Positions 18,001-45,000 of a stretch of DNA of 64,000 bases are shown piece after piece (position 1 is the first letter of the stretch; every line of letters starts with the position of its first letter). Location of the stretch: assembly GCA_965219385.1 (NCBI GenBank), contig CBDCNM010000002.1, forward strand, positions 1,296,936-1,360,935, given 5' to 3'. The position numbers are program-made. The DNA comes from Candidatus Latescibacterota bacterium. GTDB lineage: Bacteria > Latescibacterota > UBA2968 > UBA8231.

Positions 18001-21000
18001 GTGCACAGACCACCCAGGATCCAGGGGCCGGCTGGCGTGGCCAGGAACACCACTACCAGCATCGCAAGACTACCCAGGACAGGATATAGGATGCGACGGG
18101 AAGCCATCTTCCGCTTTGCTACTCGAGCTTTTTCAAATTTTTGGATGTCTGGAATACAGCGTCTGGAAGCGGGGAATAGGAAAGGGATTTAACGGTGCGG
18201 GTCAACTGGTAGACCTGCTTTTCTTCCTTGCCGCTGGGTTTGACGTAGACCTTGAGGACCGACTGCATGGAGAAGCCTTCGAGGGCCTTCATTTCGTCCA
18301 CCAGTCTTTCGTAGTCTTCTATCCTGTCCCGGAGCTGCTCCAGTCCACCGCCGATGAGGGAGGGATAGGACGTCTCCCGGGCTTGCGCTTCCCGAAACTT
18401 CTGGATGTCCTGGTAGCCTGGAAAGTCTTTGGCGACCCAGGCCTGGTAGAGGTAGCGGTTTTCCCGCTGGATCTTGTTGGAATTGGGCTGGTAGTAGCGG
18501 GCGCGCATATCGGCGGCCACGCGGTGGCACAGGATGCCCTCGATGCGGGTGGTGTCGGGCATGGGCTTGACCCTGAACTTGATAACAGGCTCGTAGGGAT
18601 TGATATTGGAGGCGGATTTGGCCGCCACGGGTTTGGCCGCCGGCAGTTTTTCCTGGACATAGGTCCGGGCTAGATGATCGATTTTGTACACCTGGGCCTG
18701 GTCCAACCGCAGGATGGTGCTGGAGTCGAGGAGTTGCCCCTGCTTTTCCAGAGTCTGGGCCATCTTCTTGTCGGCCTCTATCCGGCGGTGGACCTTCTGG
18801 CGCTTGCCCTTGATGTAGACCTTGTTGACCGTCTTCTGGGGCTTTGTCTGGCCCACCGCGAAACTGGAGACCTCCTCTATGTAGTGGACATCGGCCCGTC
18901 CCACCGCGGCATGGCTTAAGGCCAGCATCAATACCATCCGCAAAATCATCTTTCCACCCGATACCTTCACAAGATCCGACAGTAGTCCCGCGGTAAGCCC
19001 ACCTCGATCTTGGGATGGCGCCAAAAGCTGCGAACATCCTGCGGGGAAACCCATCCCGCGGGCAACGAGATGCTTCTGTGCGGGCCCTCCTCCAGCAAGG
19101 GCCCGTCCACCCCCGGCCGACTGCCGCACACTGCTCATGATCGTCCTCCGAATTTGCTCGCACCGCTGTGTGTATTTGTACGTTACTATCAGTACTTCAC
19201 GGAATCGGCAGGCGGGGCCGTGCGGGGATGGTGCCTCTGGCGTTTTATGAGGCCCAAGGCGCTCTTGCCCCGCTCCCCCTTCCTGCTGCTACACCTGCTT
19301 GCAACCCCCACCACCCTCCATAAAACGCCGCCGGCAACATCCCCGCACGGCCTTGAGGTCCAGATAGCTACGGGCATTTCGTGAAGTATTGACTATATAA
19401 GCATATACCCGGTTCCCTTGCAAGCGGGCAAGTGATTATTTTATTGGCCAGGGTTTTCACTTTTTTCTGATCTGTGTATATTTTTCCAAAGTTTAATACC
19501 CGTTAACCTCGTCGAGCCATCCGGAGGATACTTCAATGCCTTTTTTCTTTTTTGACTCTACCATGATCCTGTTGATTCCCTGCGGGATCCTGGCCCTGTA
19601 CGCCCAGTACAAGGTGCGCAATACCTACAAAAAGTTCAGCCAGGTGGCTGCGGCTGCCGGCCTTTCCGGGGCCGAGACGGCGCGCCGGATCCTGGCCCAG
19701 AACAGGGTCCACGACGTGGCCGTCGAAGAGGTGCCCGGCACCCTGTCGGACCACTACGACCCCCGCGACAAGGTGGTGCGGCTGTCCACGGATATCTACC
19801 ACGGCCACCACCTGGCCGGCCTGGCCGTGGCCGCCCACGAAGTCGGCCACGCCCTGCAACATGCCGGCGGTTATTTCCCCCTGCATGTGCGCCACACCAT
19901 TCTGCCGGTGGCCAACCTGGGTTCGACCCTGGCCTTTCCGCTCTTCCTGGCCGGCATGTTTTTCAGCGTTCCCAGCCTGATGGATATAGGCATCCTGTTC
20001 TTTGCCGCGGCAGTGGCTTTCTCAGTCATCACCCTGCCGGTGGAGTTCAACGCCAGTTCCCGGGCCCTGACCTTGCTGGCGGAGGGGCGCTTCCTCGCTC
20101 CGCGAGAAAGCCGTCTGGCCCGCAAGGTCCTCAATGCCGCGGCCCTGACCTATGTGGCGGCTACGGCCATGGCCCTGATGCAGCTGATACGGCTGCTGAT
20201 TCTGCGCGGTAGTTCGGACGAATAAAACCACCTGTTGAAGGATTTACGGAACCTTGATTTCGACTTCGTCAAAATCCCAGTTAACCGCTTCCTTTACAAC
20301 AACTTACGGCTTAACCGATCACAAGTGCCTAATGCTGCCAGTCCGCTTTACTTTGGGTGACTAATACTGCGGACGGAGAAAGAGTCATGACCCAATCCTT
20401 CGAGACTAACGTTATGCCGGTTTGCGAACCCGCGCAGCGGGTTGCCCGAAGGGCCGAATGGCCCGAAGCCGGGGGCACGATGTTATTGGATGTGCTAGCC
20501 GGGTTTGGATGCCACCAGGAAGCGCCGGTTTCATCCTGATGGCGGGAATATTCTGTAGACCAGCAACTCCAGGGTTGTTCCATCCGCCTTCTTCTGGGCC
20601 TCTCTCCCGAAGACTTCACCACCGAGAGCCTCCGGTATCCTTATGCTGGCTTGGTTGCGTCGATCAACTGGGTAGGTCAGGTATTTGTAAGCCAGATTAC
20701 TATCAGCCCACCGCTTTAAACCAACGATGGCTTCCTTGCCGTAACCATTTCCGTGCGCTCCCCTCTTGATCCATATTCCCAGTTCCGGCGTTTCGGGTCT
20801 CCCCTCTCCGTGAAGGCCGCAACAGCCAAGGAATTCTCCTGAATCACGTCGTGCAACGACTGCCTGATAGTTGTCTCCCGCCTTCATCCTCTCAACTGCG
20901 GCGTCGATGAAGGTGAATGTATCATCGATGATCTCACTTGGGCAGGGAGCCATGTACCGTGTGATTTCCGACGTAAACTCTCTGAATATGTCCTCGGCAT

Positions 21001-42000: not shown

Positions 42001-45000
42001 AAGTCACATACACTGATTCCTTGGACATCGCCCAGCATAGTCAGCATGATTTCTACCGAGGGCTGGATACGCCTATCCCTATCCGGAACATTCCTATCCA
42101 GCCAGTTGAGATAGAAATCACCTGCCTTGTCATATTCAGATTCTGTCAACTCATCGATGCGCATAGTCTCACTCCCGTTGGGGCATGGGATCTAAGAATG
42201 ATGCAAACCCGTCACGCCGCTTTCGTGTAACGTTACTGCGGGCTGCGAACTTGCCGCAGGCAAGTTAGGTCGGAGGCCCGAAAGGGCCGGAGCCGTAGCC
42301 CGACGTGTTACCTGCCGTTAGCCTCTCCGAGTGCGGATCACTTCACGTCCTTGAATCTGTAGAGAGGGCGTGGAGCATTTCTATTTAGGTCGATTCCAGG
42401 AGCCCCAACGGACTCCCAACCAGAGGTGCAGACTGGCACTCTCACGTCTGTTGGCGGTTCCCATTCGGGCCAAGGATCACAGAACGGCAACTCCCCGGAC
42501 TCCATGGCCTGAATTGCCTTCCGCCCTTCCTTATAGAAGCTCTCCGTTTCCTCTGGCAGGTATACGCCTGTCTCCAGTCGGTCTGATATTCCCACCTCAT
42601 CCTTCCAGTGCCACGTGAAATCTGGTCGTACAATGACATCGAGGGCATTGTCAGTCGTATCGAATCCAATCTCAGTTCGCTGAAACGACGACTCAAGGTC
42701 GATCTTCCACCCCTTGAATCTCCCATCGGGCCAATTGAAATGATCCTCGTAGTATGAGGGGACACCTGTCCCAGCATCAAAGAACAGCAGGACGGCGTGA
42801 GCTCGCCCAGGAAACATGAACCGCAGTACGTTCATCCTGCTTGTCCAGGGGTTCAACCGCGCTCGGGCAAGTCGATCGAAACGTTCGACAATAGTGCCCG
42901 CCGGCTGGCACAGAATCACAAGATCACTCTTATCGCAGATCACAACGTGTGGGCGGCCCCACGAAATCCAATCGTGGTGGCCCACATAACGGTGAATAAC
43001 CAGGTCATTTGGTTGCCAATGATCACACATGATCCGATCCTACGTGATATTCACAGAATTTGGCATCGCCTGGTTATCGTGTTTTTGGGCAATAGCAGGT
43101 AACTGCTTGTACCCGAACAATTGGTTCGGGTAATGGCCGCTACGTGTCACTTATCTGAAACAAAGGTACGTATTTGTGTAAACAGTCGCAACCAATACCG
43201 CGAGGCTGGGATATCCTGCGTAATCCTTTGCGGCAGTTTGAGATAGCACGGTTCTCCTGAGGTCAGCGCACCTGGCATGAATTTTTCTGGTAAGGGATAC
43301 ACTGTGGTAAGGGATACACCTGTTTGCTTGGGAGAAAATGCGCCATGCGGCGATATCGAAGACACCCGGATCTGACGAATGATGAGCTGATTACCCTCAA
43401 CCGGGTCGAGTCGGAGCTGAAGCTGAGGGGGTACGCCAGGAAAACGCAGAAATCCTACATGGGATGCTGCCGCCGTTTCCTGCAATGGAAACGGCGCTAT
43501 CGCGGTGACCGGCAGGCCGAAGTGAGATCGCATCTGGAGGAGCTCGTCGACCAGGGCGTGAGCCGCTCCGCCTTCAACATCGCATACAGTGCTCTGCGCT
43601 TTCTCTACGGGGAAGTCCTGAAGCAGCCGGCCCCCCTAAAAGGACTGCGAAGGCCACGGGGCGGCCGGCCGCTGCCGGTGATTCTGGGCCAGCGGGAAGT
43701 GCTGCGGCTGCTCGATGCGCTCGGCAATCCGAAACACCGGGTCCTCTTTGCCCTGCTGTATGCCGGGGGGCTGCGAGTGGGCGAGGTCGTGCGTCTCAAG
43801 GTGAGCGACATCGACAGCGAACGCATGTTGATCCGGGTGCAACAAGGCAAGGGGCGAAAGGATCGGTATACCTTGCTTCCCAAGGCGATTCTGGAGGATC
43901 TTCGGTCCTACTGGAAGGCGTACCGGCCGTCGACGTGGCTGTTCCCCGGGGCGCGGGCCGGCCGGCATCTCACGGAACGGACTGTGCAGAAGGTGTTCTC
44001 CCGGGCTGTGGCCGCTGCGGGCATCCGGAAGCGGGTAACGGTCCACACGCTGAGACACAGCTTTGCAACGCACCTGCTGGAGGGGGGCACCGATCTCGCT
44101 ACATACAGGAACTCCTCGGGCACACGAGCTCGAGATCGACGGAAATCTACACGCATGTGAGGCGGAAGGATCTCGTGCGGATCAAGAGTCCACTCGACGC
44201 GTTGTTGGACCACACCGGTCGATCTGGTTAGATTGGACACACTCTTCACCCTTTTCAAGACAATTAGGCAACGTACGGCGTCTAATCCGCCCAAAATAAG
44301 AGGTGTTGGAAGCATCGCAAGCGGTATAGACACTCCCGTCTCCGAATTGTATGTTCTTTAGGATGAATGCGCCCAATGAGATTCAACCCAGGAGTGTCTA
44401 TTATGCTGGTGGGTTACGTCAGTGATGAACGCTATATCGCCCTTGCGGATGTGGCGCTGGAATTCAAGAATGAAACGGGAGTGACACAGGCTCGATCCAG
44501 CGCCTCCGGTGCGGTTTACGCCGAGTTGGAACCGGGCCCCTACCAGGTGATTCTGGCAAAGGATGGATTTGGTTCCAAGATCGTGCAGATGGAGGTGAAG
44601 GAGGACGAGCCCTATCAGTTTCGGCTCCTATCAGACTGTTTGCTGGGATATATGTGGCCGAAGTGTTTGAGAGCCGGCGAGGAGGCGGAGTTCCGGGTGC
44701 ACGCCCATGAGGCGTTTAAACTGGAACTGTGGCGCTATGGACTCGAGAAGGAATTGATAAAACCCATCGGCTGGTACGATGAACACGGGCCCAGGGCAAC
44801 GCTACAGATCAGCCCGGATGGAGATTATTGTCAAACCGGAGTCCAGTGGAACAAATTTGGCTATTCAAGCCCGCACCACAAGCAGTTCGTCGAAGCGCCT
44901 GAGCGTTCGGGTTTGTACTATTTACACGCAAAGACGGAATCCGGTCTGTTCTTCTCGTTTCCCTGGGTGGTCGCCCCTGGTGCACCGAGCGCCGGTATCG

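Follow-up and report, generated by a model that had tools for sequence, protein, structure and literature searches.

A cassette array headed by a tyrosine recombinase without the IntI-defining insertion points to a second, simpler kind of integron

The window analysed here comprises 64,000 nucleotides from a Candidatus Latescibacterota bacterium (assembly GCA_965219385.1, contig CBDCNM010000002.1, positions 1,296,936–1,360,935) and contains an integron-like element at window positions 20404–44231. The head of this element is a tyrosine recombinase gene (PF13495 and PF00589; 43345–44231, end approximate; plus strand), divergent from an array of minus-strand cassettes with 16 attC-like sites (20404–42313), two of which have a degenerate R' (attC 10 and attC 13). 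The initial annotation described a complete integron with 16–17 attC sites and one-strand cassettes, in agreement with these 16 sites and a further truncated R'' arm near 27225–27245. The observation of an attI and attC array whose leading recombinase is without the insertion defining IntI (hereafter I2-less) is thus confirmed.

Counting from attI, the first four minus-strand sites accompany a DUF402 gene (42338–43030; attC 1, 42225–42313, its R'' equalling the attI junction in 9/10 bases), a methyltransferase (41454–42164; attC 2, 41269–41359), a HAD hydrolase (40524–41234; attC 3, 40432–40514) and a carbon-nitrogen hydrolase (39532–40308; attC 4, 39358–39457). A GNAT cassette (38715–39303, minus strand) follows, with a short attI-like junction at ~38715–38730 in place of an attC; its 98% identical counterpart in the relative G056 carries an attC. 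Beyond it lie a streptomycin adenylyltransferase-like gene (PF04439; 37788–38672; attC 5, 37710–37793), an unknown 297-aa gene (36820–37713; attC 6, 36686–36784), a DUF4926 gene (36080–36313; attC 7, 35951–36048) and a two-gene, toxin-antitoxin-like cassette matching the PD-Lambda-2 A and B models (35180–35880; attC 8, 35063–35144). The IS110-family element previously reported at one attC interrupts the R' of attC 8 at its core (AG; 33805–35066, plus strand; transposase 34045–35040). Next come an unknown 316-aa gene in a cassette 98% identical in G056 (32773–33723; attC 9, 32625–32712), two methyltransferases (31823–32572; attC 10, 31714–31796; and 30892–31569; attC 11, 30663–30747), a NUDIX gene (30014–30628; attC 12, 29918–29996) and a GrpB-like gene with small upstream ORFs (28663–29217; attC 13, 28559–28655). 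The array is interrupted at 22284–27245 by a segment containing the truncated R'' arm, a broken ISL3 and a catalase-peroxidase gene (24691–26928) on the strand opposite to the cassettes, with a 293-nt partial duplicate. It resumes with a NUDIX gene (21878–22327; attC 14, 21757–21845), a small unknown gene (~21278–21690; attC 15, 21173–21271) and a GNAT cassette (20531–21232) at the final site, attC 16 (20404–20488).

The attI (43100–43132, minus strand) consists of a 9-bp palindrome around CGAAC-N5-GTTCG, then 10 bp, then the crossover G/TT at 43103. As the initial annotation held, it is a conserved sequence that ends at the GTT: eight correctly oriented copies align as far as the crossover and diverge beyond it, and in a script listing of 10 attI copies the flanks pair at 3–4 of 4 positions. 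A Pc-like promoter candidate (TTGCGA, 17 nt, TACCTT; 43163–43191, minus strand) faces the cassettes; its key positions are invariant in the attI alignment, and its score falls under the consensus-scan threshold. A repressor box used across the genome is an improbable reading of the palindrome: CGAAC-N5-GTTCG has six copies genome-wide, three of them at attI. In 3/4 sequencing runs, a read joint places a homologue of a methyltransferase cassette directly behind attI; as one side of the joint spans only 28 letters, it was not taken as evidence.

The recombinase lacks the IntI-defining insertion and scores under the IntI profile cut-off, as had been claimed. Alignment with five canonical IntI leaves gaps of 31 and 10 residues, and the extrahelical-base-binding residues of VchIntIA (K209, Y210, W219, P232 and H240) map to segments missing from the I2-less clade. 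Its TIGR02249 score is 180.8 bits (cut-off 265); four intact I2-less copies score 198–242 (224–242 as quoted for intact orthologues, still under the cut-off) and two IntI controls 362 and 468. In the catalytic set R-K-H-R-H-Y, R144, K169, H234 and R237 are invariant in 12 aligned rows, and H260 and Y269 among full-length rows. The window copy is frameshifted near 44098, past the HTLRH motif and ahead of these last two residues, which lie in another frame. The same frameshift is seen in short-read contigs from three studies, so the C-terminal break already reported is genuine. Only four of nine close copies are open (G013, G015, G018 and G056), so the arrays could predate integrase decay. The dN/dS is 0.075–0.156, indicating purifying selection. 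The top match of the enzyme in sequence and fold is VchIntIA (PDB 2a3v); a structure model (pLDDT 76.8, pTM 0.59) gave no gain over alignment. On sequence grounds, we infer that the I2-less enzyme is catalytically active; with the window copy now broken, activity would reside in the orthologues that remain intact and perhaps in this genome's other copy, on contig C1.

In the window, cassette starts pair with their own R'' at 33/48 variable bases (expected 13.0±3.3; 0/100000 permutations), and 28 cassettes in six relatives, leaving out those >1600 nt or unanchored, do so at 71/84 (expected 27.3±4.5). Such a match is the footprint of circle insertion at G/TT, and these footprints show that cassettes entered as circles through this crossover, both at attI and at attC ends. 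Four cassette stretches are common to the window array and G056, at 92–98% identity and in changed order, with ends at GTT where visible, and the 3' flanks of seven loci are unshared except in one pair. Genomes that lack IntI have evidently traded cassettes and changed their order.

On one point the initial reading is amended: the sites themselves are no ordinary attC, most of them lacking the extrahelical base bound by the I2 region. Under the chosen alignment penalties, on which these counts depend, the canonical extrahelical position (position 9) is used in 8/61 family sites and 24 have none, a bulge of 3–4 nt occurs in 50/61, the 5' arm measures 13–14 nt in 67/69, and opposed positions number 10 in 43/61 and 10–11 in 58/61. 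Canonical attC controls have the extrahelical base in 6/6 cases. The family departs from the canonical pattern of a conserved L''-box extrahelical base with a near-symmetric central spacer. Both attI and attC keep a conserved CGAAC sequence at the same 10-bp spacing from the R box. GNA triloops fall on the bottom strand in 73 instances and on the top strand in one (73 sites). An Rfam search matched tmRNA alone. Generic hairpin finders gave 9 sites on the top and 8 on the opposite strand, or 0–2 sites in another run; they are too blunt for short-stem sites, and profile and pairing tests were used instead. In these, arms pair within their own site (14.7, versus 10.6 for the next arm and 9.8 at random; 43 sites), which speaks against a second crossover within attC as the usual route.

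The element is probably an integron-like capture platform with the I2-less recombinase as its own integrase, acting on folded bottom strands. Like IntI, the enzyme would recombine the double-stranded attI with a folded attC bottom strand, comprising an R box, a G.T wobble, the 3–4 nt bulge, a stem of 9–10 bp and, above it, branching hairpins capped by GNA loops. With the bulge looped out, CGAAC would lie 10 bp from the R box, as in attI, and the first hairpin would hold its AAC in paired form. Strand choice would come through folding asymmetry, not extrahelical-base pockets; by analogy, a single strand exchange with replicative resolution is assumed. In one study of IntI1, recombination is reported to survive removal of the extrahelical bases (PMC2727003). 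It is unlikely that the I2-less enzyme is cognate but works in another mode, using double-stranded or cruciform sites, two exchanges, or a host or fused helper that replaces I2. Such a mode would suit its Xer-like length, the N-terminal extension of some family members, the symmetrical attI palindrome and the conservation of CGAAC as sequence; 6/43 sites also resemble chimeras formed by an internal crossover (post hoc p ~0.01), and IntI1 is reported still to be capable of exchanging the second strand when its sites are double-stranded (PMC4792948). Against it, the spacer beside the crossover varies among attC sites and differs from attI, which blocks a classical second exchange (PMC2727003), and the covariation of the arms and the confinement of GNA loops to one strand favour a single strand in folded form.

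The reading of the I2-less recombinase as the integrase of its own array was further examined across 61 genomes. A genome-wide profile gave 47 attC-like matches at >=14 bits in this genome, the number previously reported, of which a few are weak; a calibrated model retains 40 at E<=1e-4. A second I2-less integrase indeed exists (C1:888235, 49% identity), but it is co-oriented with an array on its 3' side and has a different attI, and the attI noted at C1:488416 is present but reads on the minus strand, with crossover GAT. Two XerC/D-like proteins of this genome group apart from the I2-less clade (support 100/100). As annotated, the genome holds no canonical IntI detectable with an I2-region profile (best E 0.69; the same profile finds 8/8 IntI controls), and does hold an IntI C-terminal remnant (36 aa, 83–86% to three of five canonical IntI).

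The I2-less clade is present in 17/61 genomes and IntI in 12/61. Among 26 near-contiguous genomes (this genome and relatives with <=10 contigs), 12/13 with the clade have at least 14 family attC sites and 0/13 without it do (maximum 6), counts that include kin and are not independent. Six loci have 4–17 family sites beside the I2-less orthologue, compared with 0/11 canonical IntI loci above 10 bits; the latter carry differently built attC. In the apparent exceptions, G021 and G032, the array is headed by an I2-less copy that is broken; both genomes were placed in the clade only after showing up as exceptions. Distant homologues had been credited with 0–1 attC. Several of them head arrays on their 3' side. 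Several clade members lack family sites in the flanking DNA covered (G010, G012, G023, G029, G042, G090 and five short-contig loci), and the G059 locus has one. The attI pattern occurs in 9/61 genomes, in 7/8 with a close orthologue and in none of the 12 where an I2 domain is found; a control pattern gave 0. Across the genomes compared, attI, attC family and enzyme clade are thereby shown to travel together.

It is considered improbable that the arrays are the work of a canonical IntI that has since disappeared or acts in trans, with the I2-less gene a bystander or displacer. The IntI remnant in this genome, the co-occurrence of both kinds in G008 and G021, the IntI of other relatives and the many broken I2-less copies would accord with it. 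Set against these are the absence of the I2 region here and from 10/12 array-rich clade genomes (two have IntI), the other attC type at IntI loci, the spacing of ~230–270 nt that separates attI and the I2-less gene even where the chromosomal surroundings are unrelated, and the recurrence of the arrangement in other phyla. The eight IntI-only relatives are all fragmented (110–780 contigs), so their absence of family sites is weak evidence. Because attI and the attC family track the clade, not IntI, the I2-less recombinase is supported as the best candidate for array builder, as initially proposed.

In other phyla, a perfectly paired first cassette lies beside the gene at 14 of 83 loci and on the wrong strand at 0/83; the remaining 69/83 lack this signal. 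An IS91 transposase accompanies the gene at 76/159 broad loci, about half of the family, and the IS91-linked clade is nested in the same protein family. The I2-less gene could on this basis be a relic of an IS91-linked, hairpin-targeting recombinase that merely landed beside arrays. This already disfavoured reading is highly improbable: an IS91 (Y2) transposase is not among the Pfam matches of the window neighbours and is absent at 18/19 related loci, the gene keeps a fixed distance from its promoter candidate and from an attI that is conserved, purifying selection is seen, and paired first cassettes occur at 0/76 IS91-linked loci. Repeats at one locus, L072, were rejected as attC, the locus being IS91-linked. 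The proposal that IntI nests within an I2-less grade was given up: the nodes concerned have support of 94/88 and 92/86, an AU test did not reject I2-less monophyly (p-AU 0.569), and the tree constrained to it scored higher than the unconstrained alternative. More tentatively, and with slightly less than even confidence, I2-less integrons may be an older form that is widespread (in this phylum and in Bacteroidota, Ignavibacteriota and Bacillota); IntI would have arisen from it when the insertion and the extrahelical bases of attC were gained jointly.

The insertion serves as the defining mark of integron integrases and is regarded as a requirement for recombining attC, and surveys leave out recombinases that lack it (PMC4889954; bioRxiv 2022.02.06.479319); near attC, recombinases without the IntI domain were concluded not to be IntI (Cury et al., PMC4889954). 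A literature search found no description of such an I2-less integron. Should the enzymes be active, current counts of integrons would be skewed, a cognate enzyme would exist for many arrays now classed as integrase-less, and natural enzyme-site pairs would allow a direct test of how I2 and attC co-evolved (PMC4792948). They would also provide a structure-reading recombinase of smaller size that uses a site code of its own, and an additional path by which cassette genes, resistance-like included, move among environmental bacteria. If the evolutionary proposal is true, I2-less integrons would supply the working intermediate that the 'chicken-egg paradox' between I2 and attC calls for; they would also account for part of the integrase-less arrays and of the phyla thought integron-poor.

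Several known systems are comparable. Like CALIN (Cury et al. 2016, PMC4889954), the array has no IntI-profile protein beside it, and by that paper's rule its recombinase would not count as IntI; unlike CALIN, it is headed by a conserved attI and a recombinase under selection. Four recombinases that the paper places between IntI and Xer may belong to the I2-less family. Archaeal XerA (4a8e, 5hxy; NF040815) shares equal length, domain layout and absence of the insert, whereas the I2-less clade scores 199–216 against the NF040815 cut-off of 220, falls under those of TIGR02224 and TIGR02225, and is patchy and often broken, unlike a housekeeping gene present everywhere in single copy. IS91-linked recombinases belong to the same family, but precede a Y2 transposase and head no cassettes. 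Pseudomonas integron-like elements also have a XerD-like gene beside variable cargo, but they carry three recombinases, and in the portion of PMC4542609 available neither an attI nor an array of cassettes is described. As among inverted integrons, co-oriented variants exist among I2-less loci. The attI differs in its 9-bp palindrome from attI1, which holds direct repeats. Sedentary chromosomal integrons (VchIntIA, 2a3v) differ in having both inserts, the extrahelical-base pockets and canonical extrahelical bases, in place of the bulge, conserved CGAAC and GNA-capped hairpins seen here. They share the divergent recombinase, the attI with G/TT crossover, promoterless cassettes, RYYYAAC...GTTRRRY ends, a toxin-antitoxin-like cassette and an IS110 at an attC.

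The element of this genome, which is assembled in two contigs (5.81 Mb; the window spans C2:1296936-1360935), is real and functions like an integron; by the feature that defines the IntI family, it falls outside that family. Sixteen attC-like sites of 79-100 nt each, with RYYYAAC...GTTRRRY ends on the minus strand, occupy window 20404-42313, in keeping with the 16-17 sites and small one-strand cassette genes proposed in the initial annotation. The genes between them are short, lie on the minus strand and encode methyltransferases, GNAT, NUDIX and HAD proteins, a streptomycin adenylyltransferase-like protein, a toxin-antitoxin-like pair and unknowns. 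The array is broken up by a broken ISL3 element and an opposite-strand catalase-peroxidase (block at 23718-26928), and a partial duplicate of the catalase-peroxidase start (293 nt) also lies within it. The IS110 element earlier placed at one attC (33805-35066) is inserted at AG in the R' core of that site; a second IS110 end remnant is found in another array of the genome (C2:756681-756764). At 38715-38730, a GNAT cassette has lost its attC and carries a short attI-end-like stretch in its place, and the start of the cassette after this junction matches its own R''. This GNAT cassette resembles what are reportedly termed delta-attI cassettes (PMC12901181). Elsewhere in the window, a tmRNA gene (9245-9602) adjoins a GC dip (6000-9000), perhaps another island.

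The array is headed by a divergently oriented tyrosine recombinase gene starting at 43345, with a frameshift after HTLRH. Contigs from three studies span this place without a gap, confirming that the frameshift is real. Only four of nine close copies have open reading frames, and dN/dS between orthologues is 0.075-0.156 (ten pairs), indicating purifying selection. Aligned with five canonical IntI of relatives, the protein shows gaps of 31 and 10 residues, which bears out the absence of the IntI-defining insertion (I2), previously given as 40 residues; both it and intact orthologues fall below the TIGR02249 cut-off, as reported. A profile of the I2 insert matched all eight IntI controls and nothing in the six-frame translation of this genome (best E 0.69). 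The claim that the genome lacks a canonical IntI holds to the extent that no I2 is found; a 36-residue IntI C-terminus lies at another place in it. Among loci of the wider recombinase family, L048, L049, L050, L052 and Bacteroidota members have an N-terminal extension of ~100 residues before the integrase domain. At a Firmicutes locus (L114), a sequence at ~5060-5080 before the I2-less gene resembles the Bacillota LexA box consensus, hinting at SOS control.

If cassettes were inserted in circular form at G|TT, the bases that follow each opening GTT would derive from the site of that cassette and be expected to pair with its own R''. In the window array, 33 of 48 variable bases do so, against 13.0±3.3 in permutations (0/100000 as high) and 15/48 for cassette starts compared with R' of the same site. 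Two of the poorer-pairing cases are explained by the IS110 insertion and by the lost attC, whose true junction does match. In six relatives, pairing reaches 71/84 over 28 cassettes (27.3±4.5 by chance), leaving out cassettes that are unanchored or longer than 1600 nt; at all four readable loci, the cassette next to attI matches at 3/3 bases. Genome G056, from a different family, shares four cassette stretches at 92-98% identity, ordered differently and with different neighbours. Insertion of circles at G|TT, a conserved attI, joint inheritance with the I2-less clade and cassette traffic are all evident at the level of sequence. Chimeric attC, in which the 3' arm pairs with the 5' arm of the next cassette (6/43 sites; e.g. 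window 37710-37793), suggest occasional crossover within the site. An identical first cassette start with GAT in place of GTT at the crossover occurs in three genomes (C1:488416 here, L042 and L147).

The distribution of sites follows the I2-less recombinase. The attI pattern is present in nine of 61 genomes, with seven of the eight that hold a close orthologue and none of the 12 with an I2 domain having it; its reverse, used as a control, occurs in none of the 61. Sites of the family seen in the window adjoin six orthologue loci (4-17 per locus) and none of 11 IntI loci; six sites of another build are seen over five IntI loci. In the 26 genomes of 10 or fewer contigs, each count being limited to 70 candidates per genome, 12/13 with the clade have at least 14 family sites and 0/13 without it exceed six. 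Only two of the 12 array-rich clade genomes (G008 and G021) also have IntI. Two first apparent exceptions, G021 and G032, proved to have arrays that begin with broken copies (86% and 93% identity to clade members) and were placed in the clade post hoc. The eight IntI-only genomes lack family sites, a weak blank as all are fragmented. DNA 3' of the I2-less gene is unrelated across seven loci save one pair, so the linkage of gene, attI and array holds across different chromosomal contexts. In a second copy in this genome, and in G008, G021, G052, G059 and G086, the array lies on the 3' side and is co-oriented with the gene. For eleven clade members, several at contig ends, the flanking DNA examined holds no family site. 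The I2-less recombinase is very probably the cognate enzyme of these arrays. A perfect 18-bp inverted repeat lies ahead of the attI of the second copy (C1:889210-889265). G018 has seven matches to the attI pattern, and G015 and this genome three each; several copies per genome stand before arrays that are distant from integrase genes. Identical attC at C1:1325585-1326377, C2:3384306-3385098 and C2:4479143-4479230, two of them near contig ends, probably lie in a repeated mobile element.

In six canonical attC, the spacer is offset by one and an extrahelical base sits at position 8-9. On the bottom strand of family sites, under alignment penalties of our choosing, the arm from AAC to the conserved CGAAC measures 13-14 nt in 67/69, and the AAC of CGAAC closes a hairpin in 57/69. 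Under the same penalties, 61 well-paired sites loop out 3-4 nt in 50, oppose 10 positions in 43 (10-11 in 58), and place an extra base at position 9 in eight and at position 4 in 27, with none in 24. In attI, crossover and CGAAC are exactly 10 bp apart, and 3-4 of 4 positions flanking the palindrome pair although the sequence varies. GNA-type triloops are unusually stable in single-stranded DNA; over 73 sites, bottom strands hold 73 and top strands one. Extrahelical bases are held in VchIntIA by K209, Y210, W219, P232, H240, H241, Q145 and W157 (PMC3053210). K209, Y210, W219, P232 and H240 map to segments missing from the I2-less clade, and H241 is kept; enzyme and site have therefore lost, or never had, matching parts. 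IntI1 is described as recombining sites without extrahelical bases at reduced strand specificity (PMC2727003), which makes a mechanism without them plausible. The I2-less enzyme would bind the R box and, one turn off, the CGAAC box, both in duplex attI and on the folded attC bottom strand, with strand choice set by folding asymmetry; one exchange and replicative resolution are assumed by analogy. We regard this full model, with the cognate enzyme acting on both boxes and the strand chosen by folding, as likely.

In a tree of 54 of 95 extracted proteins, with XerC/D-like rows as sole outgroup and XerA and phage proteins left out, IntI (eight rows, 100/99) groups with the I2-less rows on the same side of a branch supported at 100/100. 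This tree places IntI within an I2-less grade (94/88 and 92/86), and monophyly of the I2-less rows is not rejected by an AU test (p 0.569). The I2-less rows may be sister to IntI or ancestral to it.

In the literature, the additional domain serves as the definition of IntI (Ghaly et al., bioRxiv 2022.02.06.479319) and the I2-attC paradox has been stated (Escudero et al., PMC4792948). Cury et al. (PMC4889954) report 50 recombinases without the IntI domain near attC, four of them between IntI and Xer, and judge them non-IntI; this set may hold members of the I2-less family. The available text of PMC8618304, PMC8876359, PMC9892861 and PMC4542609 contains no such integron, and a literature search mostly outside subscription papers found no description of such a system. 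Beyond the phylum, an IS91 transposase accompanies 76 of at least 159 loci of the wider recombinase family among the matches listed in two scans, and a clade within this family lies before IS91 transposases, which also produce single-stranded DNA. A first cassette that pairs perfectly over 7 bases, with its start next to the gene and its direction away from it, occurs at 14 of the 83 non-IS91 loci listed, six of these 14 being named as Bacteroidota; the same test gave 0/76 for IS91-linked loci and 0/83 on the wrong strand, the loci listed being non-independent. An Ignavibacteriota locus (11 repeats) and a Bacillota locus (divergent array) each have their own site family. The IS91-linked L207 shows two cassette units as well, and in an Ignavibacteriota array (L070:10900-14300) one short cassette occurs four times over.
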